Under the pieces are notes generated by a model. The model worked only from the letters and a program-made list of their open reading frames with translations. It was not told where the DNA came from and ran no database searches. Source: Caldilineae bacterium (lineage in GTDB: Bacteria > Chloroflexota > Anaerolineae > JAAEKA01). From it: a stretch of 64,000 nucleotides of DNA. The position numbers and the translations under genes are program-made. The stretch covers positions 573 through 64,572 of the forward strand of contig JACKBK010000017.1 of NCBI GenBank assembly GCA_020634555.1. The letters run 5' to 3'. Shown here one piece after another: positions 16,294 to 43,130 of this stretch; the stretch's first letter is position 1; each line of letters opens with the position of its first letter.

Positions 16294-16340
16294 GGCTGAA
16301 CCACAGAACTGTTTGAAACGTGTAGTGTCTGGTGAACGAG

Positions 16341-25939: not shown

Positions 25940-28900
25940 TCAATCCTCGCGACCTGCCAGTCGGCTCTTGCGTCGCCAGCTCGTGAACAGCCTGGAGGCA
26001 AACAGCAGCAACAGCAGTACGGTCCAGGCCAGTAGCCCGTTCAGCGGGTTGCCAGCCGCAGCATCGAAGGATGCCAGCGTCACCGCCGTCGGTGTCTGTA
26101 TGGTCGCGCTGACCGGACCGTGGCGGGTTGTATGGCCGCCTACATCTACATCCTCCAGCCAGTACCAGGCCGTCTGCCCCGGTGTGACGTCCGCGTCGTC
26201 GTACTGGTATGTGAAGCCTTGTGCGCTGCCCGGGGCCTGCGACGGCACGTAGGCCAGCAGGGTCGCGCTGTCCCAGACGCCGTCCAGCGAGCGATACAGG
26301 TTGAAACCGGCATTATCGATCTCGCTCACCGTCTCCCAGGAAACCCGGATCGCGTCCGGGCGTGCCGCCGCACCAAATGCGGCCAGCGTCACCGCCAGCG
26401 GCGTGCAGGTGTCAACACAGACCTGCCCCTGGTTGCCCAGGCCGTCGGTGTACGTGTAGGGTCCCGGCTGGTTCATCTCACGCTGGTAGGTCTGGCCCGG
26501 CTTAAGCATGCCACCATCCCAGCCCAGCGTGGTGCTGATAGGATTGAGCACGCTCAGCGGTTGCAGCACCGGGTTGTCGGTCTGCGTCGCCAGGTCGGCC
26601 GGGCTGAGGCCGTCCACCTCGGCTTGCCACTGCACCGTCGTGCCGGCCGGCACGGTGACGCTGGGCGGTTGCGGCCCGCCGGCGGTCAGCAGGATCTCGG
26701 TCACAGTTTCGATGGCGGGTGGCTCGGTCCAGGGTGTGTAGGGTACATTGACGTGGACGATTTCGTTGACGACGGTGATCACCGGGCTGCGCCATGGCTG
26801 ATAGCCCGGCTTGCCGTCCACCTGCAGATAGTACTGGCCGGGCGGGGTGAAGAAGGCAAAGTAGCCGTCCGCGCTGGTCACCTGCGGGTTGATCTGGTTG
26901 TTGTACAGCCCGGCCGGCCACGGCGTCCAGCCGCCCCACTCCGGCAGGTACTCGTAGAGCGTCACCGTGACGCCGTCGATGGCGTGCGCGGTCGGGTCGT
27001 TGGGATCAAAGCCCTGGGTCACGTCGAACACGTAGCCGTCGGGATCGATCAGGATGCGCCCGTTGGACGAGACGTAGTTGCCGCCGCAGTCGGCCCAGAA
27101 GACGACGTTGTGCGCACCGCCGGTAATGGCGAAGGTGTAGTCGGGAAACGCGCCGGTCGGATCGTAGCGGTGGTTGTCGGCGATGACCCAGATGCTGCTG
27201 GGCTGTCCGGTTGTGCCCGATTCGGGCGGGCAGTTGCAGCCATACAGATGCAACGTCGTGTTCCAGAAGCCATAGACGCCTGGGATGCGCCAGTTCTGGC
27301 TGGCGAACTCACCGCTGTTGTTGCGGAAGCCGAACACCAAATGCTGGCCGGCTTTCGGCCCCACCGTGGGCGTGCCCTCCCACTCTGAGCGCTGCGGGCA
27401 CCAAAAGCTGAGCGGCGGCCGCAGCGTCACGACAGAGCTGGGAGCGCTGCACGCGCCGCCGGGAATGCACGCCTGAACCGTCAGCAGTTCGGTCGCGCTG
27501 CCGCCGTAGGTGTAGGCGATGCTGAAGCGGCCCTCCGCGTCGGCCTGCGTTTGCAGCACCTGCACACCGTCGATGAGCACCAACACGTCCAGATTCGGCT
27601 GGGCCACGCCGCTGACATCGACATCGCCGGGGCACAGCTCGCCGCTGCCCGGCTCGGTCAGCAGCGGCGCCATGACGGGAATCTGCGTGGTCGCTTGCGC
27701 CTCAAGCTGGTAAGGGCCGGCGTGTAGGGTCGCCGTGTTGGTGTACACCCCGCCTCCTACAGGATTGTCATAGCTGGCCGCCATGCTGATCAGCCCAGAC
27801 TGGCCGCGGGCGACCTGTCCCTCCGGCTGCCACGTCAGCGTCTGGCCGGCCTGGCCGAACGTCATGGCCGGCGTGTGGGATTCGCCGGTAAGAGTCATAC
27901 CGGTCGGCAGCTCGTCGTCGATCGTCACCGACAGCGGCGACGCGTTGGCGTCCGGGCTGCCGTAGTAGTACGACAGGAAGTAGTCTTGGCTAAGGCTATG
28001 CTCCAGCACGCCGCTCTGCGGGTCCGCAGTTACGGACCAGCGCGGCGCCAGCGCGCTCTTGTCGAAGTGGAACTGGTTCTCCGGCACACGGCTGAAGGTG
28101 TAGATCATATCGCCGGTCCAGTCGGTGACGAAGATATGGTTGCCGTCCGGCGTCGTGTCAACCCCGGCCCACAGCACGCCGGCGAAGCCGGTGACCATCT
28201 CACTGACCGCGCCGGTGGTCGGGTTGACGCGCAGCAGGCGGGGAGGGGTCGCGTCGACGACCCACAGGTCGCCTGTCAGCGGATCAATGGTAATGCCGCG
28301 CGGATCGGCAATCGGCGTCTGTGTGGTCACAGGCGTCAGGGTAGGCCCGTCATCCAACCGGAAGATTGTGCCATCCGCCGTGCCCAGCGGATCGACGATG
28401 TAGATCGCCGAGGAACTGATGGCGACATCGACCGGGTCGCCCAAAGGGCCAACGCTCTGGGCGTCGGTGTAAATCAGCACTTCGCCTTCAGCTGTGTCCG
28501 GCGACCAGCGCCAGATGTAGTCCCCGCCGCTATTGGCGCCGCGGTCAACCAACAGCGCCTGGCCGGCGCTGAGAATCGGCCCTGTATAGTCGGCCGGCGC
28601 GACTGCCATACCCACAGGGTCATCGTCGCCGCTGCCCAGACCGCTGAGCCATGTTGTGCGCGTCGTGGTGCCGTACGCTGTCCGATATACCCCGCCGCCG
28701 TAGTCTTCTGAGAGAAAGATGTCGCCGTCGGTCGGGTCTACAAACACAGCAGACGGCCGGTCGGCCGCGGTGATCGACGAGATCGTGCCATCGACGTTGA
28801 CGCGGTTCAGGTTGCCGCCGCCGCCACTGGATGGTCGGCGTCCGTAGTAAAGCAGACCATCGATGGGGTTGTAGTGCGCTCCTACCGGATCCGCTGCGGC

Positions 28901-29095
28901 TGTGGCGGTGCTGATCACCCAGCCCGGTTCCACAATGCTTATCTCGTCAGGCGCGCCAGGAGCGGCCAGTGCCTGCGGCGCGTAAGCTGCCAGCAATCCA
29001 GAGAGCAGCGATACACACAGCAAGAGCCGCAGCGGCAAGCTATGAACGATCCTCATTTTCTGAAAAGTGGCGGGTCGTGTGTTGTTTCGTTTCAT
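25940..29095 (-). CDS. Cassette A: large secreted multidomain protein (N-terminal beta-propeller, Ig-like/carboxypeptidase-regulatory-like and cupredoxin-like repeats) ending in the conserved C-terminal anchor module
   Basis: Signal peptide LSGLLAAYAPQALA, propeller-like strands (IYIVDPLG, LWVVDATPPRLLRV, HIFVTDWTGDMIYTF), and the C-terminal 153 aa PLAVTLAAF...GFNLYR...PSQAPGSAQG...YWLEDVDVGG...PTAVTLASF + TM + RRKSR. Confidence 0.8.
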   Translation of the reverse strand: MKRNNTRPATFQKMRIVHSLPLRLLLCVSLLSGLLAAYAPQALAAPGAPDEISIVEPGWVISTATAAADPVGAHYNPIDGLLYYGRRPSSGGGGNLNRVNVDGTISSITAADRPSAVFVDPTDGDIFLSEDYGGGVYRTAYGTTTRTTWLSGLGSGDDDPVGMAVAPADYTGPILSAGQALLVDRGANSGGDYIWRWSPDTAEGEVLIYTDAQSVGPLGDPVDVAISSSAIYIVDPLGTADGTIFRLDDGPTLTPVTTQTPIADPRGITIDPLTGDLWVVDATPPRLLRVNPTTGAVSEMVTGFAGVLWAGVDTTPDGNHIFVTDWTGDMIYTFSRVPENQFHFDKSALAPRWSVTADPQSGVLEHSLSQDYFLSYYYGSPDANASPLSVTIDDELPTGMTLTGESHTPAMTFGQAGQTLTWQPEGQVARGQSGLISMAASYDNPVGGGVYTNTATLHAGPYQLEAQATTQIPVMAPLLTEPGSGELCPGDVDVSGVAQPNLDVLVLIDGVQVLQTQADAEGRFSIAYTYGGSATELLTVQACIPGGACSAPSSVVTLRPPLSFWCPQRSEWEGTPTVGPKAGQHLVFGFRNNSGEFASQNWRIPGVYGFWNTTLHLYGCNCPPESGTTGQPSSIWVIADNHRYDPTGAFPDYTFAITGGAHNVVFWADCGGNYVSSNGRILIDPDGYVFDVTQGFDPNDPTAHAIDGVTVTLYEYLPEWGGWTPWPAGLYNNQINPQVTSADGYFAFFTPPGQYYLQVDGKPGYQPWRSPVITVVNEIVHVNVPYTPWTEPPAIETVTEILLTAGGPQPPSVTVPAGTTVQWQAEVDGLSPADLATQTDNPVLQPLSVLNPISTTLGWDGGMLKPGQTYQREMNQPGPYTYTDGLGNQGQVCVDTCTPLAVTLAAFGAAARPDAIRVSWETVSEIDNAGFNLYRSLDGVWDSATLLAYVPSQAPGSAQGFTYQYDDADVTPGQTAWYWLEDVDVGGHTTRHGPVSATIQTPTAVTLASFDAAAGNPLNGLLAWTVLLLLLFASRLFTSWRRKSRLAGRED

Positions 29096-29160
29096 TGCAA
29101 GTATTCCTCCGTAGTAAGCGACTGCTGCGAAACAGGTTCAGGCAAGAAATTCATCGCTGG

Positions 29161-29198
29161 CTGGGGTAGCAGGCGAGTTTTCCCGTCCGCTACCCCAG
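29161..29198 (-). terminator. Intra-operon hairpin (possible attenuator) between the lipoprotein gene and the 1051-aa gene
   Basis: 10-bp stem ctggggtagc / gctaccccag with an 18-nt loop and no clear U-tract. Confidence 0.35.
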
Positions 29199-29212
29199 CA
29201 GCGTTTGAGGCT

Positions 29213-30169
29213 CTAGCCCTCCACCGCCAGCTCAGCTACCATGCCCATCATGAAGTGGGGCGCGCCATCGGCGTTGGACGAGGGGATGAAGCACAGAAGG
29301 CCATAGTGCTTGCCAGCCTCCAGATTGGCCGTGAAGTAGGCTTCACTGTCGGTGGCGATGGCGCCAATGCCGCCCACAGGCATGCCCGGCGGGGGACCAG
29401 CCGGGGCGTCGGATGCCATGGCAGCCAGGAAATCCTGCACGCTTGCGCCCGGCGCCAGTTCAATCAGCGAGAGTTCGTGCGGCTCGGTGCCTGTGTTGAC
29501 GACCTTGATGGTCTGGTCGCCTGGAGCCACGGTCTGGTCGGAGATCTTGAACTGGTAGTCCACCAGTTCCACGGTCAGGTCAGCATCAGGCGCCTGGGCC
29601 GTCGCGCCGCTGGCGGCGGTGACGCTGAAGGGCTTGATCAGTCCCTTTGCAGCGTGGGGAATCCCGTCAGGGCCGGGGATCACATCGATTACCACGTAGT
29701 CGCCTGCTTCCAGATTCACCATGGTAGAGGCACTGGCGCCCGGCATCACGCCGGTAGGCCCACCCGCGCTGGCCAACCACTCGGGCACGCCGGTTAGCTC
29801 GCCCTGCAGCGCAGCAGCCAGGTCGTTCATGGTCTTGCCCTCCAGGAAGCGGAAAAGCTGGGCCTGGTGTTGGTCCTCGCCCTGGTTGGTCAGTTCGACG
29901 CGCGTCCAGCCAGCCGGTGTGCTGTCCGGCCCGCTGAACCCGGTCTCGGTGGCGGTGAAGCTCACCGCGGGGATGGACGGCGCCTCGGCAGCCGGAGCCG
30001 GGGCCTGGCAGCCGGCAACCGCGAGAGACAGGACGCTGAGTATCAACAGGAAAATGGTCAAGTTGGTCTTTCGGTAGAACACGGTACACTCCTTGGATTG
30101 AAATAGGGTTTCCACTTGGATCACAAACATTTGGGGGTTTCGCAGTGATCTGCCAGACGGCAGTGTCAT
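29213..30169 (-). CDS. Cassette A: lipoprotein with a cupredoxin-like C-terminal Cys...His..Met motif
   Basis: Lipobox LSLAVAGC. The C-terminus LLCFIPSSNADGAPHFMMGMVAEL resembles the C-x-H-x-M ligand loop of blue copper proteins but with a longer Cys-His spacer. The ATG at 30169 overlaps the stop of the upstream small gene (ATGA). Confidence 0.6.
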   Translation of the reverse strand: MTLPSGRSLRNPQMFVIQVETLFQSKECTVFYRKTNLTIFLLILSVLSLAVAGCQAPAPAAEAPSIPAVSFTATETGFSGPDSTPAGWTRVELTNQGEDQHQAQLFRFLEGKTMNDLAAALQGELTGVPEWLASAGGPTGVMPGASASTMVNLEAGDYVVIDVIPGPDGIPHAAKGLIKPFSVTAASGATAQAPDADLTVELVDYQFKISDQTVAPGDQTIKVVNTGTEPHELSLIELAPGASVQDFLAAMASDAPAGPPPGMPVGGIGAIATDSEAYFTANLEAGKHYGLLCFIPSSNADGAPHFMMGMVAELAVEG

Positions 30170-30402
30170 CGCTTGCGTTGTTTTTCGTCGGGTTGTCCTC
30201 CTGTAGCGCTATCGGCGGGCTGTCGGCCCGAAATTTCCAGCGTCTCGTTCGTCATCTCCCCCAAGAAGGCCACCAGATCGCTCAATGCGCCGAAACTGTA
30301 TCGTTCCTTGACGTATGCGTTCTCCAGCGTTGCGTGCCATGGTTTGTCGTTGCCTGTGCGCCAGAGTCGCAGGACGTAGGCAAAGTAGTCTTGGTTCGAC
30401 AT
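30166..30402 (-). CDS. Cassette A: small (78 aa) conserved protein, paralog of 42483..42701
   Basis: YVLRLW...WHATLEN...KERYSFGALSDLVAFL aligns with FVLTCW...WRYSLER...GERLGFADLRELMAYV. In both cases it is the first gene of the operon and has a 4-nt ATGA overlap with the next gene. Confidence 0.6.
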   Translation of the reverse strand: MSNQDYFAYVLRLWRTGNDKPWHATLENAYVKERYSFGALSDLVAFLGEMTNETLEISGRQPADSATGGQPDEKQRKR

Positions 30403-30416
30403 GAGTAGACGATCTC

Positions 30417-30448
30417 AGTATAATTGGGCAACCGGTTGCCAGTTTGCC
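30417..30448 (-). promoter_or_regulatory. Cassette A: candidate activator-dependent promoter (-10 TATACT preceded by GGCAAAC/GGCAACC boxes)
   Basis: Minus strand reads ggcaaacTGgcaaccggttgcccaatTATACT. The proximal box sits 17 nt upstream of the -10, as in cassettes B and C. The boxes are 8 bp apart, not 11. There are only 14 nt from the -10 to the ATG. Confidence 0.4.
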
Positions 30449-30587
30449 GGGATGGCAGCTTCCAGGAGATGGCGGTTTTTGCCGGACGGCGTTCCTGACC
30501 CTCGCAGCTCGCTGCACACCTCGATCAGATGGCTTCAGCATACAGCATGACTCTTCAGGAAGTCTTTATTTTCCCTTCAGGAAAGCC

Positions 30588-33500
30588 ATGACCCGATCAG
30601 GATTGGCGATTTTCCTGCTGGGAGGTGTGCGAATCGAGTTGGACAGTTCGCCCGTCACCGGGCTTGCCTCACGCAAGGCCGAAGCCCTGTTGATCTATCT
30701 GGCCTACGAGCAGCAGGTCAAGAGCCGCGAGTTCCTGGCCGGAATGCTGTGGCCTGACTCCTCCCAGGCGCGGGGATTGGCCAACCTCAGCGTCGTGTTG
30801 ACCAGTCTGCGCAAGCAACTGGACCCTTTCCTCCACACAACGCATCAGACGATCGCCTTCGTTCACGATCGAGATTACACCCTGGATGTGGCTGATTTCG
30901 AGAGGGACATCGGTAACGCCCGGCGTCTGCAACAGCAACAGGGGCAGATAACCCGTGCAGCGGCGGCCTTGCTGATCAGCGCCACCGAGGCCTACCGGGG
31001 AGATTTTCTGGCAGGTTTCTCGATTCGACAAGCGCCCGATTTCGAGGCGTGGGCCTTGCTTGAACAGGAGCGATTGCGGCGGCTGGCACTGGAGGCCATG
31101 CACGACCTGGGCAATTTCTACATGGGGCGCGGCCAATTCACCACCGGCATCGAACAGGTTAACCGGTTGCTTGCATTGGACCCGCTGCGAGAGGATGGCC
31201 ACCGGTTGCTGATGCGCCTGCTGGCGCTGGACGGCCAGCGCGCGTCAGCCCTGGCGCAGTTCGACCGCTGTTTCGAGGTGCTGCGCGATGAACTGGGCGT
31301 CGAGCCAGACGACGAAACAGCCGCGTTGTATGAGGCAATTGCCAAGGACGAATTCCCGTCCGGCCAAGGCGTCCGGGAAGCAGCGCCTGCCATAGCTGCA
31401 GGCCAGGTTCCCGTCGCGCCCTCACACAACCTGCCCCACATCCCCACCCCGTTCGTGGGCCGCGAGCTAGAACAATCCCAGATCGCTGCCCGGCTGGACA
31501 GCCTGGACTGCCGTCTGTTGACGTTGACCGGCCCCGGCGGAATCGGCAAGACGCGGCTGGCCCTGCAAGCCGCGGGCCAGCGCCTGGCCACCTATCGCGA
31601 TGGCGTCTGGTTTGTGGGGCTGGCCGCACTGGACGACGCAGCCGGCATCCCATCGGCCATCGCCTCAGCCATGGGCTTCGCTTTTTCGGGGCCGGCCGAT
31701 CCCGCCAACCAGTTGGTGGATTTCCTGAGAAACAAGGAAACGCTGCTGCTGCTGGACAACTTCGAGCAACTGATCGGCGACCAAAGCCTGGATCTGGTCG
31801 CGCGCCTGCTGGCCGAGGCGCCGGGGACCCAGATGCTTGTCACCTCGCGCGAGCGGCTGAACCTGCAAGCCGAGTGGATCGTCGATGTGAGTGGACTGCC
31901 CTATCCGGCCGATTCCGCCGATCCCCGGGCCGGCCACTATGCCGCCGTGCGCCTTCTGGTACAGCACGCCCAACGCCTGCGAACAGACTTCAAGCTGGAT
32001 GCCACCAACCAGGCAGCCGTGGTGCGCATCTGCCAGATGGTGGATGGCATGCCTCTGGCCCTGGAACTGGCCGCGTCCTGGATCAGGGCCCTGGCGCCGC
32101 AGGAGATCGTCGCCGAGTTGGCGCGCGGCCTGGAAGTGCTCACTACCACAGCCCGGGATCTGCCGGCCCGCCACCGCAGCATCCGGGCAGTGTTTGACTA
32201 CTCGTGGCAATCCCTCAGCCAGGAGCAGCAGGTTGCCCTGATGCAGCTTTCGGTGTTCCGGGGCGGATTCACGCGAGAAACCGCAGCCGCGGTGGCAGGC
32301 GTAACGGCTGGCGTGCTGCTGGCATTGGTGGACAAATCGCTGGTGCGCCCCTTGGCGTCAGGCCGCTTCCTTAAACATGTGCTGACCAACCAGTACGCGG
32401 AGTCGCGCTTGGCCGAGCACCCCCAGCTTGAACGGCAGGTACATGCCGACCATGCCCGCTATTTCGCCGAGAGGCTGCAACGGCAGGAGCACGGCTTCTA
32501 CGGTTCCGATGACCGGAACGCCCTGGGTTGGATGGTGGCTGAGGAGGAGAACATCCGGCGCGCCTGGCGCTGGGCCGTGGCCGAACAAGACCTCACGCTC
32601 GTTGGCCACTTCCTGGAAAGCTTCCTTTATTTCTTCGACATTCAAGGACGCTACCGGGAAGGCGCCGAACTGACGCAGGAGGCGCTGGCAGCGCTGGCGC
32701 CCATTGACGGCGAAAGCGAACCCCGGTTTCGCCGGGTGCTGGGGCGGCTGACGGCTCTGGACGGCGGATTCCGCTTCCGCCTGGGCGATTTCGAGGGTAC
32801 CCGGCTCCAGGCTGAGCGCGCCGTTGCGCTGTTGGAGCCTTTCAGGCCGTTGCTGGACCTGGGCCACGCCTTTTTGTACCGGGGCATCGGCTTCTATGGC
32901 CTGGGCGATCTCGACAGATGCCTGGCGGATTCGCTGAGAGCCAGGGATGCCTATCGTGAGGCAGGCCATGCCTGGGGTGAGGGAGCGGCGCTGGACAACG
33001 CCGGCACCATCCTCTCCCTGCAAGGCCACCATGATGAGGGCCGCCGTCTGCACCTTGAGGCGCTGGAGATCGCCCAGAAGCTGGGCAGCCGCTACCTCAT
33101 GGCCGCTCTCCTGGGTGATCTGGCCAACATCGAAACGGCGGCTGGAGATCATGACAAGGCGCTGGACTATGCTGAACGCTCCCTGGCCGTGATTGAGGAG
33201 ATGGAACGGCCCTACATGACCGCCACTATCTCGCGCGCCCTGGGCGACATCGCCCTGCAAAGCGGTGACTACAGCGCGGCAGAAGAACACCTGGCCAAAG
33301 CCCTGGCTATCGCCCGCAACACCGGCAACCGCCTGGATCTGGCTGATGCCTTAGTACAGCTCGGCGCTGTCCACATGGCCCAGAAGCGCTATGAACTGGC
33401 AACCGAGGCCTACCAGGAGGCAGTTGCCACGGCAGGGGACATCCAGGCGCGCCTGATGGTCGCCGACGCGCTGGCAGGCTTGGGCGAGGTTGCAATACAC

Positions 33501-33704
33501 AGGGGAGCGCCGCACAAGGCTGTGACCCTGTTGGCTTTCGTGGTCACCAACGGTGTAAGCCGGGCCGAGACTTGCCAGAAGGCCGAAGCGCTGTTGCAGG
33601 AGGCATCCACCCTGCTTTCACGCGATGCGTACCAGAATGCTGAAAAGCGAGGACAGGCGCTGACTTCCGATGCCGCCATTGCCCTCGTGTCCAGGTACAC
33701 CTGA
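30588..33704 (+). CDS. Cassette A regulator: AfsR-like SARP (OmpR-type wHTH + BTAD), NB-ARC/STAND ATPase and TPR
   Basis: RKAEALLIYLAYEQ...LWPD, PDFEAWALLEQERLRRL, LDPLREDGHRLLMRLLALDGQRASALAQFDRCFEVLRDELGVEP (BTAD), Walker A GPGGIGKTRLAL, LLLLDNFEQL, and C-terminal TPR-like repeats. RBS AGGAAAG before the ATG at 30588. Confidence 0.85.
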   Translation: MTRSGLAIFLLGGVRIELDSSPVTGLASRKAEALLIYLAYEQQVKSREFLAGMLWPDSSQARGLANLSVVLTSLRKQLDPFLHTTHQTIAFVHDRDYTLDVADFERDIGNARRLQQQQGQITRAAAALLISATEAYRGDFLAGFSIRQAPDFEAWALLEQERLRRLALEAMHDLGNFYMGRGQFTTGIEQVNRLLALDPLREDGHRLLMRLLALDGQRASALAQFDRCFEVLRDELGVEPDDETAALYEAIAKDEFPSGQGVREAAPAIAAGQVPVAPSHNLPHIPTPFVGRELEQSQIAARLDSLDCRLLTLTGPGGIGKTRLALQAAGQRLATYRDGVWFVGLAALDDAAGIPSAIASAMGFAFSGPADPANQLVDFLRNKETLLLLDNFEQLIGDQSLDLVARLLAEAPGTQMLVTSRERLNLQAEWIVDVSGLPYPADSADPRAGHYAAVRLLVQHAQRLRTDFKLDATNQAAVVRICQMVDGMPLALELAASWIRALAPQEIVAELARGLEVLTTTARDLPARHRSIRAVFDYSWQSLSQEQQVALMQLSVFRGGFTRETAAAVAGVTAGVLLALVDKSLVRPLASGRFLKHVLTNQYAESRLAEHPQLERQVHADHARYFAERLQRQEHGFYGSDDRNALGWMVAEEENIRRAWRWAVAEQDLTLVGHFLESFLYFFDIQGRYREGAELTQEALAALAPIDGESEPRFRRVLGRLTALDGGFRFRLGDFEGTRLQAERAVALLEPFRPLLDLGHAFLYRGIGFYGLGDLDRCLADSLRARDAYREAGHAWGEGAALDNAGTILSLQGHHDEGRRLHLEALEIAQKLGSRYLMAALLGDLANIETAAGDHDKALDYAERSLAVIEEMERPYMTATISRALGDIALQSGDYSAAEEHLAKALAIARNTGNRLDLADALVQLGAVHMAQKRYELATEAYQEAVATAGDIQARLMVADALAGLGEVAIHRGAPHKAVTLLAFVVTNGVSRAETCQKAEALLQEASTLLSRDAYQNAEKRGQALTSDAAIALVSRYT

Positions 33705-33725
33705 AACGGAGAGGGCATCCTTTGA

Positions 33726-33760
33726 AAATGACCGGCGCTTGCGGAAAGTGCCGGTCATTT
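33726..33760. terminator. Bidirectional hairpin between regulator A and the convergent cassette B structural gene
   Basis: 11-bp stem aaatgaccggc / gccggtcattt with a 13-nt loop. Confidence 0.6.
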
Positions 33761-33784
33761 GAGTCTGTGCGCGCGAGATGAAAG

Positions 33785-36238
33785 TCACTTTCGGCCAGTG
33801 GCTGTCACCTTCCGACGACGAATCCCCAGACCGGCGACGGCCAGCGCGACCAACAGCGCAACCCCGGCCAGCGCGCCACCCGCGGGTTGCTGCGTCGCGG
33901 CGTCGAACGCAGTCACCGTCACCGCTGTCGGCGCCTGCATGGCCGCGCTGACCGGCCCATGACTGGTTGCAACACCGTTCAGACCAATGTCCTCCAGCCA
34001 GTACCAAACTGTTTGGCCAGGCTGCACATCAACGTCAACATAGCTGTAAGCGGAACCCTGCGCGCTGCCAGGGGCCTGGGAGGGAATGCTGGCCAGCAAA
34101 GTCGCGCTGTCCCAGTTGCTGCTCGCGCCGCGATAGAGGTTGAAGCCAGTGTTGTCCAGCTCGCTGACCGTCTCCCAGGTGACAAGGATGTGATCCGGCT
34201 GCGCTGTCGCGTCGAAGGATGCCAGGGTGACTGCCAGGGGCACCGCGTCAGCGAACACGTAGGCTGCGCCCTGGTAGTTGTTCACTCCAATGCGTTCGGC
34301 AAAGGCTCCGACAAGGATCGTCCCCGAGCGAACGCCTACGCTTTGGCCGAAAAAGGGATTGTTGATCGCGCTGCCGCTGAGGAGCTTCTCGGCCTCTGTG
34401 AAACCAGTGACCTGGTCGCCCGTTGAGCGCACAAAGGCGTAGGCCGATCCCCGTGGATCGTCGCCCGCAGCGCCCACAACGAGAACGTTGCCATCGATAT
34501 CGACTGAGCCGCCAAACTGGTCACTGGCGGCTGCGTCGCTGGCTGACAGCTTCTCCGTTTCGTTCCCCGTCGCCCACCCGCTAACTGGTTTTTCGAAGAC
34601 GTAGACGGACCCGGCATCGGCAATGGAGCCGACGTGATCCGCGACAGCTCCCACCACGATGGTGTCGCCGCTGATGGCTACGTCCTGGCCAAAGAAGTCG
34701 CCGGCAGCCCCGTCGCTGGCGGTCAACTTGGCGGTTTCGTTGGAGGTGCTCCACGATCCGGCGGCAACAAACACGTAGGCCGATCCCTGGTCGGCGTTGG
34801 CGCCGATGTCGTCGCTGCCAGAACCCACGACAACGACGTTGCCTTCGATGTCCACGGACGCGCCAAACTGGTCGTATTGCTGGCCGTCGCTGGCGGTCAG
34901 CTTGGCCGTTTCCGTACCGTTGGCCCAACCGCCACCCGGCTTCACGAACACATAGGCAGCGATGTAGGTCCCCGCTACGATGCTGTCGCCGTCGATTGCC
35001 ACCGATCTGCCAAGCGCGGCGTTGGTGGAGGCATCACTCGCGGTCAGCTTGGCCGTCTCCGTGCCACTGGCCCAACCGCTGCTCGGTTTCTCGAAGACGT
35101 AGACCGCGCCGGCTCCGGACGGGGCAGCCACAGGCGAGCCAACCACAACCGTGTCACCGCTGACGCCGACCGACGTGCCGAAGGTGTCGTAGGCCGCGCC
35201 GTCGCTGGCGGTCAGCTTGGCCGTCTGGACACCTGTGACCCAGCCCCCGCCTGACTTGACGAAGACGTAGGCGGAGCCGCGGTTCCAGCCTCCGCTTCCT
35301 ACGTCGTCGCCTGGTGCGCCAACCACCACCGTATCGCCGTCGATCGCGACTGACCTGGCAAAGTCGTCGAACTCGGCGCCGTCGGATGCCGTCAGCTTAG
35401 CCGATTCGGTGATCGGGTCCACGATCAGCGGATAGACTGCGTTCGAGTCGTCGATCAGGATGCGCAAACGCCGGTCGCCTGCCAGCTCCAGCCGCGCGGG
35501 CACAGCCTTGCCTTCCGCATCAAAGACGTACAGCTTGCCGTAGCGCAAGACCGTTGCACCGGACTCGTCAGCGAATTCGATGGACGGGCCTGTCTGCCGC
35601 GGCGTCAGGTCGCCCCTGACCGCCATCTCGATAGCCAGAAGACCGGCCGCGTTGCTGGCTGGGCGCGTCAACAACGTGAACCCCTGCTCCAGCCCGCCTG
35701 GCCCGTTTGTCCACCACTCGCTCAGTCCGGCATTCCACCGGTAGGTGAGGCGTTCCGCGTCAGCGCTGGCTGAGGGCATACCGGCCATGGGCGTTACATT
35801 GTCCTGGTATCCGTAGCCGGTGAGCGCCAGCCCCCAGCGCCACGACTCGCCAGTGGCCGATGTAACCTCGACTGTGCCCGTCTCGGCAAAGGTCACGTTC
35901 CAGCCCTGTCGCCGGTTTGGCGCCCAGTAGTAGGGTGAGGCCACGCGCTGATCGGCTGCGCGCCACACCAGATGATACTCGGCCTCGGCAATGGCGCCCT
36001 CGACGACATGCCAATCTGCCGGCGAGAAACCCACTGGAACCTGTCCGGGAACAACCATCTGCGTCCCGGCAAACACTTCGGCCTCTTCAAAAGCCGCGGA
36101 GGTCGATGCGGGCACAGTTCGCTGCCGTGGCAGGACAGGCGCGCCCAACGCCGTCAAAACGATCAAGATCGCAAGAAGCGCGTTTAACAAGCCTCGCGGC
36201 AAGGCAAGGTTGGGAATCGAAACAGATACATAGGACAT
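33785..36238 (-). CDS. Cassette B: secreted 7-blade FG-GAP-type propeller protein ending in the conserved C-terminal anchor module
   Basis: RBS AGGAGG before the ATG at 36238. Seven repeats (T)AKLTASDG..(F/Y)D.FG.SV.I.GD.(V/I)VVG...D. C-terminal 151 aa PLAVTLASF...GFNLYR...PSQAPGSAQG...YWLEDIGLNG...PTAVTVTAF + TM + RRRK. Confidence 0.85.
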   Translation of the reverse strand: MSYVSVSIPNLALPRGLLNALLAILIVLTALGAPVLPRQRTVPASTSAAFEEAEVFAGTQMVVPGQVPVGFSPADWHVVEGAIAEAEYHLVWRAADQRVASPYYWAPNRRQGWNVTFAETGTVEVTSATGESWRWGLALTGYGYQDNVTPMAGMPSASADAERLTYRWNAGLSEWWTNGPGGLEQGFTLLTRPASNAAGLLAIEMAVRGDLTPRQTGPSIEFADESGATVLRYGKLYVFDAEGKAVPARLELAGDRRLRILIDDSNAVYPLIVDPITESAKLTASDGAEFDDFARSVAIDGDTVVVGAPGDDVGSGGWNRGSAYVFVKSGGGWVTGVQTAKLTASDGAAYDTFGTSVGVSGDTVVVGSPVAAPSGAGAVYVFEKPSSGWASGTETAKLTASDASTNAALGRSVAIDGDSIVAGTYIAAYVFVKPGGGWANGTETAKLTASDGQQYDQFGASVDIEGNVVVVGSGSDDIGANADQGSAYVFVAAGSWSTSNETAKLTASDGAAGDFFGQDVAISGDTIVVGAVADHVGSIADAGSVYVFEKPVSGWATGNETEKLSASDAAASDQFGGSVDIDGNVLVVGAAGDDPRGSAYAFVRSTGDQVTGFTEAEKLLSGSAINNPFFGQSVGVRSGTILVGAFAERIGVNNYQGAAYVFADAVPLAVTLASFDATAQPDHILVTWETVSELDNTGFNLYRGASSNWDSATLLASIPSQAPGSAQGSAYSYVDVDVQPGQTVWYWLEDIGLNGVATSHGPVSAAMQAPTAVTVTAFDAATQQPAGGALAGVALLVALAVAGLGIRRRKVTATGRK

Positions 36239-36346
36239 TATTACCTCCTGACAGATACAACTCTTGGCGACAACCTGCAAGTCGTGGGTGCTCAGACATC
36301 CGGCGGGCGTTTGACGCGCGCCGGTTCTTGCACTAAACTTCCGTCC

Positions 36347-36381
36347 AGCATACACCCCTACTCTTTGACAACTCTTTGACT
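36347..36381 (-). promoter_or_regulatory. Cassette B: SARP-type promoter (two 11-bp-spaced direct repeats, then 8 nt, then a -10)
   Basis: Minus strand reads aGTCAAAGAGttGTCAAAGAGtaggggtgTATGCT: 9-nt core, 2 nt, 9-nt core, 8 nt, -10 hexamer. It faces the FG-GAP gene. Confidence 0.55.
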
Positions 36382-36495
36382 CGCTGTCCCGGTGCCTGCC
36401 ACTGTGGCAGTGACCGGTACCTCCACCGAGGGAAGCGACTGCTGTTTCAAGTGACAGTCACTGGCGGAAAGTGACTGCCATTGCCGACGACACCA

Positions 36496-39400
36496 ATGCT
36501 GCCTATGAACGGCCACCCGATCCAGATCCGATTGCTTGGCCCACCCCAGGTCTTGCGCGATGGTCAACCCGTCGAGGGCTGGCGATCGCGCAAGGCGCTG
36601 GGGCTGCTGGGCTATCTCGCGCTGAGCGACGGACCGGTGACGCGACCGGCGCTGGCTGAGCTGTTGTGGCCCGCCAGCGATGAGTCCCGGGGCCGCGCCA
36701 ACCTGAGCTGGGCGCTGAACCACGTTACCGGCTTGTTGCCCGGCTGTCTGGCCGCGGACCGCCACACGTTGCGGTTTGTCCGCGACAAAGCCGGCATCTT
36801 CCTGGACAGCGACCACTTTCGCCGCCTGAAGCGGCGCAACACCGTCGAGGCGCTGGAGGAGGCAGTATCGCTGGTGCAGGGCGAGCTGCTGGACGGGTTC
36901 TCGCTGGACGGCTGCCCCGATTTCGAGCTATGGCTGGTGCAGGAACGAGAACGTTGGCAGCGTTTGGTCGCTGACGCCTGGTCGACGCTGATCGCCCACC
37001 ATCGCTTCGCCGGCAACTACGAAACGGCCGTTGCCTATGCACGTCGCCTGCTGGCCTATCTTCCCTGGCAGGAGTCGGCGCACCGCCACCTGATGCTGCT
37101 GCTGGCGCTCAGCGGAAGACGCAGCGCGGCGCTGGCGCAGTACGAGATCTGCCGCCGCCTGCTGGCCGAGGAGCTAGGCGTCAAACCATCGGCAGAAACC
37201 ACGAGGCTCTACGAGGCGATTCGTTCGGGCGACGAGACCCGGCTGGCGGCGGCAATCGCAGGTGCAGAACCCAAGTCGCCGGTTCTGGCGGCAACACCCG
37301 GCGCGCGCTCGACTGCGCCGCGTCACAACCTGCCTCGCCAGTTCACGTCCTTCGTGGGCCGTGACCGAGAGCTGGCCGCCATCGCCCGGCGCCTGCATGA
37401 GCCTGAAACCGGCCTGATCACCGTGACCGGTCCCGGCGGTGTCGGCAAGACCCGCCTGGCAGTTGCTGCGGCCGCGGCGCATCTGGGTCACTTCGCGGAC
37501 GGCGTCTTCTTCGTCCCCCTGGCGCCACTGACTACCCCAGACCGGATTGTGCCGGCGCTGGCCGGCGTGCTGCAGTTCCCCTTTGACCAAAGACCTGATG
37601 GGGCAACGCCCGAGGACCAGTTGCTGGACTGGCTGGCCGGCAGGCAGGCGCTGCTGGTGCTGGACAACTTCGAGCACCTGACCGGCGGACCAGACTTCTT
37701 GCTTCAATTGCTGGCGCGCGCGCCAGAAGTCAAGCTGCTGGTCACCTCTCGCCACCACCTGAACCTGCAGGCTGAAACGCTGTTGGAGATCGCGGGCCTG
37801 CCCGTCCCGTCGGCCGGTGAAGACGATGCTGCCGAAACATATCCGTCGATGCGGTTGTTCGTGGATCGGGCGCGACGGCGGCGGTATGACTTCGAACTGG
37901 CCGCGCACGAGAGACCGCTGGCGGCCCGGCTATGCAGCTTATTGGCCGGCTATCCGCTGGCGTTGGAGTTGGCGGCCGCGCTGGTGGCCAGCCAGCCGTT
38001 GGAACAGATACTGGCCCAGGTGTCGGAAAATCTGGACATCCTGAAGACCTCCATGCACGATGTCCCGGCGCGCCATCTCAGCTTGCGAGCCGTTTTTCTT
38101 CACTCCTGGCATCTGCTTTCGCGGGAGGAGCAGGCTGCCCTGGCGTCGCTGGTCGTCTTTCGCGGCGGCTTCAGCGTTGACGCCTTCACCGCTGTCAGCG
38201 GCGCGCCGGAAGCGACCCTGCGCGGGCTGGTGCAGAAATCGCTGGTACAGGCGCTGGACGGCGAACGCTTCGATCTGCATTCGCTGATCGTCCAGTATCT
38301 GCGCGAGACACTGGACGACACAACCTACCATCTGGCCGGCAGTCGTCACAGCGCGTGGTACCTTGGCCGCGCCCAGGTTGATTCGCCACAACTGCTGGGC
38401 GAGGGCCAGCAGGCCGCGATGGCGCGCCTGCGCCAGGACCAGGACAACCTCAGTACGGCCTGGCAGCGCGCTGTCCGGCGTAAAGACCTTGCCACCATCC
38501 GCTCATCGGTGAGTGATCTGTACCGCTACTGGACGCGCCAAAACCACCTGCAGGCGGGAGTCGCTTTCTTCCAACGCGCCGCCGATGCGCTGGCCGAGAT
38601 TGATCCCGTGCTGGCTGCCGGTCTGCGGCTGCGGGCTATCGGCTGCATCCAGTGGGAGAGCTATCGCCCCGAGCACCTGGACCGTGCGCTGCGAGACCTT
38701 GCCGTTGTGCGCAAGGCAGGCAATCGTCACGATCTTGCGGCAGCCCTGTTGATGGCCGGCCGTTGCGCCGCCTACGCGATGAAAAACAGCGAGGGCAGCG
38801 AGCGAGACCTGCTTGCCGAAGCCGAAACGCTGCTTACCTTCCTCGATGACGATGAAGGAACGAGCGAGATCGCGATTCTGTGGGGGTATGTAGAGCAGCA
38901 ACTGGCCAACTACGCCGAAAGCCGCCGCTGGTATCGGGAAGCCGCCGCGGCATTGCGCCGGCGGGGCGACCAACAAAGGCTGGCGTTCGTTCTCTTCAGG
39001 CACGCACGCATGGCGTTTATGGCCGACTCCTTCGACGAGGCCAGCGAACTGGCCGGTGAGAGCCTCGCGCTGCATACCCGCATCGGCGACCAACGAGGTA
39101 TCCTGGACAGCCAGGTGACACTGGGGTTGGTGGCGTATCAGGCCGGACTGCTCGACAAGGCAGGTGTGTACTTCGAAGAAAGTCTGGAGCTTGCCCGCTA
39201 TCTTGGCAACCGGGCGCGCGTCGCTAACAACCTCAACAACCTTGGCGTGATCGCCCATCACCAGTGCCGCTACGACGAGTCGCAGAGTTGGTTTGAACAG
39301 GCACAGGCCGAGTTTGAAGCCATGGGCAGCCCGTTGGGCGTTGGGCTGGTGTTGACCAACTGGGGCCTGCTTGCCGAGGAAATGGGCGACCTGGACGAGG

Positions 39401-39825
39401 CTGAGAGTCTCTTGCAGGCCGCGCTGGCGGTCCGCCTGCGGGTTGGCAAGACCCGCGACGTGGTGATTACCCGGATCAATCTGGGGTTCGTGGTGGAAGC
39501 CAGAGGCGAGGTCGAGGCGGCGCTGGACCAGTTCCACCGGGCAGCACGCACCGGCATTGACAAAGCAATGCCGGGCTGGACCGTGGATGCGCTGGCCGGC
39601 ATCGCACTGGCGCGGTTGGATGCCGGCCGGCTGGAAGATGGCGTCGCGCTGGCCGGGCTGGCGCTGGCCGCCGAGTCCCTGGCTCCCTACGCCCGCAAAA
39701 AGCTTAACGCGCGGCTGGAAGCGATGCGCGTCGAGATCTCGCCGCAACGACTGGACCATATGCTGGCTCAAGGGCGCGCGCTGGATCTCGACGCCACCGC
39801 GCGAGCGATCATCGAAGACCGGTGA
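36496..39825 (+). CDS. Cassette B regulator: AfsR-like SARP, NB-ARC/STAND ATPase and TPR
   Basis: IRLLGPPQVLRDGQPVEGWRSRKALGLLGYLAL, PDFELWLVQERERWQRL, QESAHRHLMLLLALSGRRSAALAQYEICRRLLAEELGVKP, GPGGVGKTRLAV, LLVLDNFEHL, TPR-like C-terminus. The start is uncertain (TTG 36481, ATG 36496 or ATG 36505). Confidence 0.85.
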   Translation: MLPMNGHPIQIRLLGPPQVLRDGQPVEGWRSRKALGLLGYLALSDGPVTRPALAELLWPASDESRGRANLSWALNHVTGLLPGCLAADRHTLRFVRDKAGIFLDSDHFRRLKRRNTVEALEEAVSLVQGELLDGFSLDGCPDFELWLVQERERWQRLVADAWSTLIAHHRFAGNYETAVAYARRLLAYLPWQESAHRHLMLLLALSGRRSAALAQYEICRRLLAEELGVKPSAETTRLYEAIRSGDETRLAAAIAGAEPKSPVLAATPGARSTAPRHNLPRQFTSFVGRDRELAAIARRLHEPETGLITVTGPGGVGKTRLAVAAAAAHLGHFADGVFFVPLAPLTTPDRIVPALAGVLQFPFDQRPDGATPEDQLLDWLAGRQALLVLDNFEHLTGGPDFLLQLLARAPEVKLLVTSRHHLNLQAETLLEIAGLPVPSAGEDDAAETYPSMRLFVDRARRRRYDFELAAHERPLAARLCSLLAGYPLALELAAALVASQPLEQILAQVSENLDILKTSMHDVPARHLSLRAVFLHSWHLLSREEQAALASLVVFRGGFSVDAFTAVSGAPEATLRGLVQKSLVQALDGERFDLHSLIVQYLRETLDDTTYHLAGSRHSAWYLGRAQVDSPQLLGEGQQAAMARLRQDQDNLSTAWQRAVRRKDLATIRSSVSDLYRYWTRQNHLQAGVAFFQRAADALAEIDPVLAAGLRLRAIGCIQWESYRPEHLDRALRDLAVVRKAGNRHDLAAALLMAGRCAAYAMKNSEGSERDLLAEAETLLTFLDDDEGTSEIAILWGYVEQQLANYAESRRWYREAAAALRRRGDQQRLAFVLFRHARMAFMADSFDEASELAGESLALHTRIGDQRGILDSQVTLGLVAYQAGLLDKAGVYFEESLELARYLGNRARVANNLNNLGVIAHHQCRYDESQSWFEQAQAEFEAMGSPLGVGLVLTNWGLLAEEMGDLDEAESLLQAALAVRLRVGKTRDVVITRINLGFVVEARGEVEAALDQFHRAARTGIDKAMPGWTVDALAGIALARLDAGRLEDGVALAGLALAAESLAPYARKKLNARLEAMRVEISPQRLDHMLAQGRALDLDATARAIIEDR

Positions 39826-39870
39826 AGGTGAGAGTCACCTCCTAACTGCGCCAGGCAGCAGCAAACCACT

Positions 39871-39974
39871 TGGGTGTATTTGAATCTGGTTGAGGGAGGT
39901 CTCCTGACCGAGCGGCTCCCGGAGCGGTCAGGAGACCGCACGGAACACCGCTCAACCGAGTTCAAATACACCCA
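39871..39974. mobile_element. MITE-like palindromic element, copy 2, flanked by a 7-bp direct duplication (AACCACT)
   Basis: Ends tgggtgtatttgaatctggttgag / ctcaaccgagttcaaatacaccca, internal stem ggtctcctgaccg / cggtcaggagacc, and AACCACT at 39864-39870 and 39975-39981. Confidence 0.7.
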
Positions 39975-39980
39975 AACCAC

Positions 39981-40670
39981 TTAACTGCGTTTCTGCCGGT
40001 ATGTCACAACCGGTAGGGCAGCCAGCGCCGCGAACAGCACCGCCGGCAACAACCACACCGGCGCAACCGGAGTCTCACCTGCGCTGGCCGTCAGTACAGC
40101 CATGGTAACTGCGGTCGGACCTGCCAGCGCAGCCGTGACCGGGCCGTGCACCGTTCCCTGACCGCCAAGGTCTACATCCTCCAGCCAGTAATAGTAGGTC
40201 GGACCCGGCTCCACCTCCGCGTCCCGGTAGTTGTACTCAAAACCCTGCGCGCTGCCTGGGGCTTGAGAGGGCACGAAGGCCAACAGGCTTGCACCGGCCC
40301 AGTCATCATTGGTGCCGCGGTAGAGGTTGAAGCCGGTGCAGTCGATCTCACTCACCGTCTGCCACTCAACCAGAATGCTTGCGCCATCTTGCCGGGCGGT
40401 GAATCCGGCCAGTGTCACGGCCAGAGGCGCTTGCAGGCCGGGCTGCCAAAACCCGCCGCGTACAGTGTACCCGCCGCCTGAGACCGTCCCCGCTGCCGAA
40501 CCGACGCTGCCCCGCAACAGATACGCGCCTGCGCTGCTGGCTCCGCCACCCTGTGTGGTTGACCTGGTGACTGTCCACCCGCCGCCACTCTGAGCCATGG
40601 CCGTCGTCGCTGGCAAAGCCAGCAGCAGAACGGCAACAGCGGCGACGAAAGTAACGCATCGTTTGATCAT
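39981..40670 (-). CDS. Cassette C: small secreted Gly-rich protein consisting mostly of the conserved C-terminal anchor module
   Basis: Signal peptide ALPATTAMA, SGGGYTVRGGFWQPG motif, then 148 aa PLAVTLAGF...GFNLYR...PSQAPGSAQG...YWLEDVDLGG...PTAVTMAVL + TM + RQKRS. Confidence 0.75.
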   Translation of the reverse strand: MIKRCVTFVAAVAVLLLALPATTAMAQSGGGWTVTRSTTQGGGASSAGAYLLRGSVGSAAGTVSGGGYTVRGGFWQPGLQAPLAVTLAGFTARQDGASILVEWQTVSEIDCTGFNLYRGTNDDWAGASLLAFVPSQAPGSAQGFEYNYRDAEVEPGPTYYYWLEDVDLGGQGTVHGPVTAALAGPTAVTMAVLTASAGETPVAPVWLLPAVLFAALAALPVVTYRQKRS

Positions 40671-42899: not shown

Positions 42900-42964
42900 G
42901 TCATTCCCGCGAAGGCGGGAATCCTGGGCTGCGAGGAGTGGATTCCCGCCTTCGCGGGAATGAC
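42900..42964. repeat. Inverted pair of REP-type hairpins
   Basis: tcattcccgcgaaggcgggaatcc ... ggattcccgccttcgcgggaatga. This is the same hairpin type as unit A of the 8.5-9.3 kb array. Confidence 0.75.
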
Positions 42965-43035
42965 AGGTGAGCAGTTACATTGCGCCTCGATCAAGTCCGA
43001 CGGAGATGTGTGCTGGCCTCATTGGGCCAGCGCAT

Positions 43036-43064
43036 TTGCTCCATCCTCTTGTCAAGTGTATAGT
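43036..43064 (+). promoter_or_regulatory. Candidate sigma70 promoter for regulator C
   Basis: TTGCTC, 17 bp, TATAGT. It overlaps the opposite-strand -10 of the cassette C promoter. Confidence 0.4.
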
Positions 43065-43095
43065 TTATGTGTCCCTCGTTTGCATATCGTTTGCA
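43062..43095 (-). promoter_or_regulatory. Cassette C: SARP-type promoter (two 11-bp-spaced direct repeats, then 8 nt, then a -10)
   Basis: Minus strand reads TGCAAACGAtaTGCAAACGAgggacacaTAAACT, the same 9-2-9-8-hexamer geometry as cassette B. Confidence 0.5.
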
Positions 43096-43130
43096 GGTGC
43101 CAGATATCCGCAACCGCTATCGGGAGAACA

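Follow-up and report, generated by a model that had tools for sequence, protein, structure and literature searches.

A C-terminal module of an Fn3-like domain, a hydrophobic helix and an arginine-rich end on exported proteins of Anaerolineae-type Chloroflexota

Filamentous Anaerolineae are dominant in activated sludge and in many sediments, yet the way in which Chloroflexota fix proteins to their cell surface is almost entirely unexplored. A stretch of 64,000 nucleotides from a Caldilineae bacterium (contig JACKBK010000017.1 of assembly GCA_020634555.1; hereafter referred to as the window) raises this question in a concrete form: three of its genes encode exported proteins that differ over most of their length and end in the same module of about 150 residues. 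An earlier note on this DNA had proposed that the module is a distinct sorting or anchoring domain, in which a PTAVT motif, a transmembrane (TM) helix and a basic tail form the tripartite signature of processed sorting signals. Is the module a signal that is cut, or an anchor that holds its proteins in the membrane? Here we describe its anatomy, predicted fold and distribution, show how the PTAVT segment relates to the domain that precedes it, and weigh a membrane anchor, which we favour, against processing by a peptidase and against assembly by strand exchange.

Anatomy, fold and distribution of the module

The module occupies positions 25940-26401, 33785-34240 and 39981-40427 of the window, and all the motifs listed in the earlier note are present at exactly these coordinates, on the minus strand only; a plus-strand reading of the same intervals was ruled out, its translations being stops and nonsense. 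Each interval runs from the stop codon to the proline of a PLAVT motif, that is, over the last ~150 codons of a minus-strand open reading frame (ORF). Gene 1 (25940..29095, minus strand) encodes a 1051-residue exported protein with a signal peptide, and its passenger region matches a β-propeller (DUF6923), DUF11, Big_6 and CarboxypepD_reg weakly. Gene 2 (33785..36355, minus strand) is an 856-residue ORF with a signal peptide and seven FG-GAP_2 repeats, whose true start is probably the ATG at 36238, where the signal-peptide-like sequence begins. The product of gene 3 (39981..40670, minus strand) has 229 residues: between its signal peptide and the module there is just a Gly-rich stretch of about 55 residues. 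By inspection, the N-termini of all three proteins are signal-peptide-like. Homology among the three is restricted to their last ~150 residues, where the modules share 53–60% pairwise identity and 68 invariant columns. Modules 1 and 3 match by BLASTP at E 4e-49, far beyond chance, whereas no relationship is seen between the passengers of proteins 1 and 2 (E 0.58). The proposal of a distinct, conserved C-terminal module of anchoring type on otherwise unrelated exported proteins is supported. A hidden Markov model (HMM) built from the three modules and run over all six frames found no fourth copy in the window.

The module begins with an Fn3-like β-sandwich, which leads with its strand A, PLAVTLAxFxA, and closes with HGPV(S/T)A. 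Four residues later comes a trailing segment, which in the window modules reads PTAVT(L/V/M)xx(F/L)xA and is followed by a spacer of 7–9 residues, a 19-residue hydrophobic helix and 6–13 Arg/Lys-rich residues; the helix lies 18–20 residues from the start of PTAV. Common to the three modules are PLAVTLA(A/S/G)F, W(E/Q)TVSE(I/L)D(N/C)xGFNLYR, an identical PSQAPGSAQG, (W/Y)YWLED(V/I), HGPV(S/T)A, PTAVT(L/V/M), the hydrophobic helix and a basic end containing RRKSR, RRRK or RQKRS. In module 1 (all features of the three modules are on the minus strand), the Fn3-like domain (26105..26401; residues 899–997, ending in HGPVSA) starts with the strand A PLAVTLAAFGA (26369-26401) and is followed by PTAVTLASFDA (26060..26092), apparently the vestigial strand A of a lost second repeat, and by the TM helix GLLAWTVLLLLLFASRLFT (25982-26038) with the basic tail SWRRKSRLAGRED (helix and tail together 25943..26038). 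Module 2 has its Fn3-like domain at 33944..34240 (residues 706–804, leading strand PLAVTLASFDA), the trailing segment PTAVTVTAFDA at 33899..33931, and the TM helix GALAGVALLVALAVAGLGI with the tail RRRKVTATGRK at 33788..33877. In module 3, the domain (40131..40427; residues 82–180) is followed by PTAVTMAVLTA (40086..40118) and by the TM helix VWLLPAVLFAALAALPVVT with the tail YRQKRS (39984..40058). Homologues end 3–13 residues past the helix, with Arg at 96, 87 and 61% in three successive columns.

From an alignment of 107 sequences, AlphaFold2 (AF2) models protein 3 as a signal-peptide helix followed by a Gly-rich stretch without order and then a sandwich of seven strands (residues 83–181) with a predicted local distance difference test score (pLDDT) above 90; beyond the sandwich, the PTAVT segment lies in a coil (block-mean pLDDT ~74–86), and a helix spans residues 205–225. 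The top Foldseek matches of the sandwich are Fn3 domains at E values of 1e-5 to 1e-4, among them the N-terminal domain of the pectate lyase PelI (3b4n, E 1e-5) and an Fn3-like protein of C. thermocellum (3mpc). With its seven-stranded sandwich, Fn3 topology and core motifs, the predicted domain has the features of an Fn3-like fold. It shares with these bacterial Fn3 domains a single or tandem occurrence, a Trp in strand B, a GF/Y-x-hydrophobic-Y-R motif in strand C and, in strand F, a tyrosine corner of the YYW type, but differs in its VPSQAPGSxQG loop, its HGPVS end and the attached helix anchor. Neither Pfam fn3 nor any other Pfam model matches the domain at its cut-off, and the module profile gave merely marginal matches to antibody light chains and phage immunoglobulin domains among sequences in the PDB.

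The module is widespread in one branch of the phylum. A word-filtered profile search returned 348 proteins, the named ones all from metagenome-assembled genomes (MAGs) of Caldilineales or Anaerolineae; the names of these relatives are uninformative. Scanning one genome per species gave 208 matches, the best 78 of which are the loci analysed here. All but three of these loci are labelled Chloroflexota, mostly of Anaerolineae-type orders (Caldilineales, Ardenticatenales, Thermoflexales, Anaerolineales and Ca. Amarolinea), a few being 'uncultured Chloroflexia' or Chloroflexota. The three other labels belong to one 'uncultured bacterium' contig and two short contigs that were probably mis-binned. 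Two contigs bearing the module, L018 (Planctomycetales MAG, 2.3 kb) and L071 (Thauera MAG, 7.3 kb), are assigned to MAGs outside Chloroflexota and are probably binning errors, because genes identical to that of L071 are present in the Caldilineales loci L068 and L070. In four MAGs the module occurs in at least 14, 13, 12 and 10 copies. When 1.84 billion cluster representatives were searched exhaustively with HMMER, there were 52,947 matches at E ≤ 1e-3, 16,856 at E ≤ 1e-10 and 1,229 at E ≤ 1e-30; the last mark a large unannotated set of surface proteins within a wider Fn3-like family of ~53,000 clusters, and a model for the cassette would at once improve the annotation of these genomes. In the full-text literature we found no paper describing the module, nor a Chloroflexi sorting signal or PorU or an Anaerolineae sortase of relevance, and the family appears to be undescribed, without a model, name or paper.

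A place at the extreme C-terminus holds, with few exceptions, for the full form of the module: it ends nearly all of 113 module ORFs from the 78 loci, and it is C-terminal in the best matches of two protein searches, among them the best 150 from HMMER, which are proteins of 130–2,542 residues. This does not extend to the Fn3-like part alone, which also occurs internally, with nine tandem copies in the homologue P0124. Internal copies in homologues, which the earlier note had listed as evidence against its proposal, are seen for the domain but not for the full module. In P0132, from another lineage, four Fn3-like repeats (residues 156–668) precede a genuine type IX secretion system (T9SS) C-terminal domain, which Por_Secre_tail models matched at 33 and 44.6 bits and which served as a positive control. 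In P0142, residues 650–1021 comprise a choice-of-anchor Q domain and, directly after it, three Fn3-like repeats that end the protein. These arrangements show that related Fn3-like repeats adjoin or replace different anchors in different lineages.

Origin of the PTAVT segment

The earlier note had read PTAVT as a motif that returns ahead of the helix to form a sorting signature. Proteins with tandem domains point to another origin. At the junction of the two domains of P0122 (...HGPVSAAVQGPTAVTLLSFTAEAQ...), PTAVTL is strand A of the second domain, and the tandem proteins P0123 and P0027 have PLAVTL or PLAVSL at the equivalent position; the junctions of all three proteins follow the pattern ...HGPVS-x5-P(T/L)AVTL..F.A, the latter part being strand A of the next repeat. 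BLASTP likewise pairs the leading strand of module 3 with module 1's trailing segment. Across 167 distinct modules, the column frequencies (in per cent) of the leading copy are P88 L81 A90 V86 T73 L98 A92 x F98 x A99, and those of the trailing copy P100 T93 A96 V96 T71 L78 x x L56 x A85. Counted from the trailing ...L.A, the position of the next Trp peaks at +11, which is exactly how far the strand-B Trp lies past the leading ...F.A. Because of the identity with tandem junctions and this matching Trp spacing, the tail looks like a degenerate, partial second repeat, with PTAVT as its first strand and the rest replaced by the helix.

Wherever the tail motif occurred in ~1 Mb of related DNA, the Fn3-like domain accompanied it. 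Given this linkage and the repeat origin of PTAVT, the tail is not an autonomous signal of the PEP-CTERM or LPXTG kind, as the tripartite interpretation had implied, and the unit is the whole 150-residue cassette rather than the motif, helix and basic tail alone. Two further ideas about the segment were abandoned. The notion that T or L at the second strand position marks 'follows domain' or 'follows passenger' was dropped, as tandem junctions use both, and insertion of the trailing strand in cis into its own domain was rejected on inferred geometry, the segment starting merely 4–5 residues past strand G.

Membrane anchor or processed sorting domain

The module resembles the C-terminal anchors of surface proteins but lacks the traits that define each of the named families with which it was compared. 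Whether whole proteins, modules or tails on their own were scanned against Pfam and NCBIfam, no model reached its cut-off, so no already defined sorting model is matched, in keeping with the distinctness claimed earlier. The LPXTG pentapeptide is absent from the tails, and no Pfam or NCBIfam anchor model was matched even at E values up to 10; the three proteins contain no PEP motif and match no PEP-CTERM model, and the PGF-CTERM and GlyGly-CTERM models gave no match. MYXO-CTERM came closest, at 17.2 bits against a cut-off of 20 in one tail, aligning merely the helix and the Arg cluster, and the Cys that is invariant in MYXO-CTERM is missing from all three window tails. JDVT-CTERM (12.4 against 27 bits), PVV-CTERM (11.6 against 27) and GG_III (9.4 against 22) also remained below threshold. 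Matches to 'invert_tail' (NF058595; 14 against 37 bits) and to PspM were rejected, the former as a helix or compositional match and the latter as helix-driven or compositional. One JGI homologue, P0034, carries the source label 'MYXO-CTERM domain-containing protein', and its tail consists of PTAVT, a helix and RRR, with no Cys. As the tails score below threshold and lack Cys, that name is unsupported, and the helix and Arg cluster appear, from the sequence, to have triggered the label falsely.

With the tripartite signals and their enzymes (LPXTG and sortase, PEP-CTERM and exosortase, PGF-CTERM and archaeosortase, GlyGly-CTERM and rhombosortase, MYXO-CTERM and myxosortase) the module shares its place at the extreme C-terminus, the order of motif, helix and Arg/Lys-rich end, the unrelated passengers and the many copies per genome. 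It differs in that it is not a short autonomous tail with a motif abutting the helix: the motif belongs to a folded domain of 100 residues, as the remnant of a repeat strand, and PTAV is well separated from the helix. It also lacks an invariant Cys, GG, PEP, PGF or LPXTG, and has no established partner enzyme.

The T9SS, described for Bacteroidota (PMC5445135), offers another parallel, as its C-terminal domain is also a β-sandwich of 80–100 residues that ends diverse exported proteins. As in that system, PorU-like C25 peptidase genes cluster with the domain genes, and some of the peptidases bear the domain themselves, just as PorU bears a C-terminal domain. The differences are the TM helix that follows the domain here, the failure of Por_Secre_tail (TIGR04183 and PF18962) to match any of the three window proteins, and the arrangement of P0132, in which the Fn3-like repeats stand upstream of a real T9SS domain. 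The annotated genes of the loci, whose annotation is partial, included no further component of a T9SS. Another comparison is with Haft's 'choice-of-anchor' and pre-anchor domains, such as PGF-pre-PGF, which lie just upstream of interchangeable C-terminal anchors. The Fn3-like domain similarly precedes a helix with RRR, nothing at all, an LYLPLI-type tail or a T9SS C-terminal domain, but no choice-of-anchor model matches it. In P0142 it follows a choice-of-anchor Q domain and therefore occupies the anchor position.

We favour, with somewhat better than even confidence, the reading that the module is a C-terminal type I membrane-anchoring cassette of Anaerolineae-type Chloroflexota. The proteins would be exported through Sec by their N-terminal signal peptides, and translocation would halt at the single C-terminal hydrophobic helix, which together with the Arg cluster would act as a stop-transfer sequence and leave the Arg-rich end in the cytoplasm, giving a type I topology. 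The variable passenger, be it FG-GAP repeats, propeller and immunoglobulin-type domains or a Gly-rich peptide, would be held on the cell surface by a rigid Fn3-like stalk, and PTAVTLxxFxA with the spacer would be the remnant of strand A and the A–B loop, with the strand-B Trp now at the helix start, serving as a juxtamembrane connector. Cleavage would not be needed. The analysis demonstrates the anatomy of the module, its conservation, predicted fold, C-terminal position, copy number and taxonomic spread, and the repeat origin of PTAVT; its topology, its role as an anchor and the lack of cleavage we infer from the homology of modules on unrelated passengers, the signal peptides, the C-terminal position and the Arg end. 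By sequence, the three proteins have what is expected of a type I single-pass protein, namely a signal peptide, one C-terminal helix (modelled in protein 3) and positive charges after it; a strictly tail-anchored protein, by contrast, would be a cytosolic protein without a signal peptide that is inserted after translation, whereas all three proteins have signal-peptide-like N-termini and passengers of extracytoplasmic type. The distance of PTAV from the helix also favours an anchor, being unlike that of signals cut inside or at the membrane. A plain anchor would be ordinary, but the module poses a concrete and testable question about how surface proteins are sorted in a phylum of which little is understood.

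Several observations weigh against this anchor. Conservation of the trailing P-T-A-V (100/93/96/96%) equals or exceeds that of the true strand A (88/81/90/86%), yet the trailing copy is unstructured in the AF2 model; nothing folds after it, and its constraint exceeds the needs of a plain connector. A strict RRR end, a very short cytoplasmic tail and 10–14 or more paralogues per genome also typify processed sorting signals. Moreover, the Fn3-like repeats of P0142 sit where an anchoring domain is expected, and PorU-like C25 peptidases are encoded in clusters with proteins that end in the Fn3-like domain.

The search for a processing enzyme led to these peptidases. The earlier note's remark that the window has no visible sortase-, exosortase- or rhombosortase-like gene was confirmed, as no sortase, exosortase or rhomboid domain was found among its ~40 larger ORFs. 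No family of sortase, exosortase or rhomboid type was conspicuous in the ~740 genes that surround the modules at the 78 loci, and none of the recurrent neighbour families showed an exosortase domain. These recurrent families comprise ATP synthase genes, present through synteny, BTAD-STAND regulators and a cassette of genes for HprK-like, PqqD, S24/S26-like peptidase, radical SAM/SPASM, NTP_transf_5 and 7-TM proteins and large secreted C25 peptidases. Their only multi-TM families are ATP synthase subunit a and the unassigned 7-TM protein; a 9-TM family considered as a possible exosortase proved to be subunit a, retained by conserved synteny.

Counted with a C25 HMM, C25 peptidase genes are present in 7 of the 78 module loci, from seven MAGs, and several lie directly downstream of the module gene on the same strand. 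The peptidases match Pfam Peptidase_C25 at E 2e-79 and the NCBIfam model of the T9SS sortase PorU at E 3e-64 over profile positions 8–737, at 217 bits, which is under the 420-bit cut-off. Their best relative by sequence in the PDB is PorU (6za2, E 6e-21), and the catalytic His and Cys are invariant. In the reverse direction, 80 metagenome loci were selected solely by their C25 protein. At least one non-C25 gene with the Fn3-like domain, almost always at the C-terminal end, was found in 43 of the 80, and in 37 when just the 60 loci that have at least six genes are counted; the domain-bearing genes mostly share one strand with the peptidase gene and lie 1–5 genes away from it. In total, 63 of 730 genes in the C25 loci bear the domain, and because the background frequency of the domain in these genomes is not included, the enrichment is an estimate. 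The gene-neighbourhood association of C25 peptidases with the domain is real and is the best enzyme lead.

The C25 genes form part of a conserved cassette on Anaerolineae-type contigs of 43–68% GC, of which we found no published description (loci L027, L037, L041, L066, L067, L069, L076 and L083-L162; for example, L145:4928-16662 and L139:4860-16047). Its order is a protein of ~580–690 residues ending in the domain, a radical SAM/SPASM protein, an HprK-like (ScmC-like) protein, the PorU-like C25 peptidase (~1000–1200 residues), an S24/S26-like peptidase and a protein ending in the domain with a short tail; PqqD-like and NTP_transf_5 genes are often included. Three endings follow the domain in the C25 loci: PTAVT with helix and RRR, a stop right after HGP(V/I)S, or a short tail of LYLPLI.R or YLPLILY type. 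Short hydrophobic endings of the last kind, such as ...LYLPLIRR, ...YLPLILY and ...LFLPQVGK, without a helix, occur in several families of the cassettes (for example, L143:1155-4001, L145:14299-16662, L155:6816-9677, L160:5047-8445 and L130:2203-3588).

A processed sorting domain, with its two variants taken together, deserves appreciable weight, even if we judge it somewhat improbable. In the first variant, which we regard as a tentative possibility, the Fn3-like domain, with or without the helix, would be a sorting domain analogous to the T9SS C-terminal domain and recognised by a secreted PorU-like C25 peptidase; the passenger would be cut near the leading PLAVT or at PTAV and released or moved to a wall or sheath component, the helix serving to park the substrate. 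The gene clusters in both directions, the PorU-like profile matches with the invariant catalytic pair and the position of the P0142 repeats directly after choice-of-anchor Q all speak for it. It has to be squared, however, with a 64-kb window that contains no C25 gene, with cassettes in which most domain-ending genes lack the PTAVT–helix tail, with a PorU score below its cut-off, with the estimated nature of the enrichment, and with the few C25 proteins that bear the domain themselves and may simply be further cargo. A still broader proposal, that Anaerolineae-type Chloroflexota have an undescribed sorting system with the Fn3-like domain as a tag in three tail variants and the PorU-like C25 peptidase of the cassette as its sortase, we consider unlikely. 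If true, a step related to that of PorU in type IX secretion would operate in a lineage without a described T9SS, and a functional PorU-like link would extend sortase-like processing of β-sandwich C-terminal domains beyond Bacteroidota and provide a testable enzyme–substrate pair.

The second variant, in which PTAVT is, much as the earlier note pictured it, a new CTERM signal and is recognised by another, unlinked enzyme (a sortase-like transpeptidase, a rhomboid, CPBP or exosortase-type protease, or a Thr-modifying glycosyltransferase), seems improbable to us. It would account for the extreme conservation of PTAV, and the Ala/Gly-rich helices ending in RRR, the many paralogues per genome and the sub-threshold MYXO-, JDVT- and PVV-CTERM matches, which reflect the same helix-plus-Arg design, are consistent with it. 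But the spacer is variable and PTAV is distant from the helix, the motif is explained by repeat homology and its tail never occurs apart from the Fn3 domain, and no candidate of these enzyme classes was found in the window or among the recurrent neighbour families. C25 peptidases prime strand-exchange pili in Bacteroidia, and their genomic association with the domain would fit a different role for the duplicated strand: each molecule's trailing PTAVTL would take the place of its neighbour's leading strand, so that Fn3 domains stack head to tail and build fibres or a sheath. The near identity of the two strands and the conservation of a trailing copy that is unstructured in the monomer model fit this idea, which we nevertheless hold to be highly improbable, because the leading strand is confidently part of the domain in the AF2 model, a spacer of 7–9 residues would still tether every subunit to the membrane, and tandem arrays already account for the duplicated strand.

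Genes around the three modules

Two proteases are encoded in the window, a Peptidase_M50 of the site-2 protease type (54822-55916, plus strand) and a C39-like papain-fold protein with TPR repeats (16332-17744, plus strand); they are the sole membrane or secreted proteases near the modules, and nothing ties them to the modules. Directly downstream of gene 1 lies a gene for a 418-residue protein with about ten predicted TM segments (24359-25615, minus strand). It has no kinase domain and matches the membrane part of PrsK weakly (E 2e-4; 20 bits against a cut-off of 300); PrsK is the histidine kinase of the XrtA/PEP-CTERM system.

Three regulator genes, all on the plus strand, lie between or beyond the module genes. 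The first (30444..33704; BTAD, NB-ARC/AAA and TPR) is divergent from the operon of 29213-30169 and gene 1, the second (36481..39825; BTAD, NACHT/NB-ARC and TPR) from gene 2, and the third (42960..46268; BTAD, AAA and TPR) from the operon of 40702-42486 and gene 3. The window thus contains three paralogous SARP/STAND-type regulators, each divergent from an operon that ends in a module gene, in a threefold layout of regulator plus surface protein; similar regulators stand beside module genes in 6 of the 78 related loci.

Upstream of gene 1 lies a gene for a 318-residue exported protein (29213..30169, minus strand), whose sole match is a weak one to an EfeO-like, cupredoxin-type domain. Upstream of gene 3, at a distance of 31 nt, a 594-residue exported protein without a family match is encoded (40702..42486, minus strand). 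The pair of genes for the 594- and 229-residue proteins recurs on four other public contigs, and the 229-residue protein, which is little more than a module, might serve as a membrane tether for its 594-residue partner.

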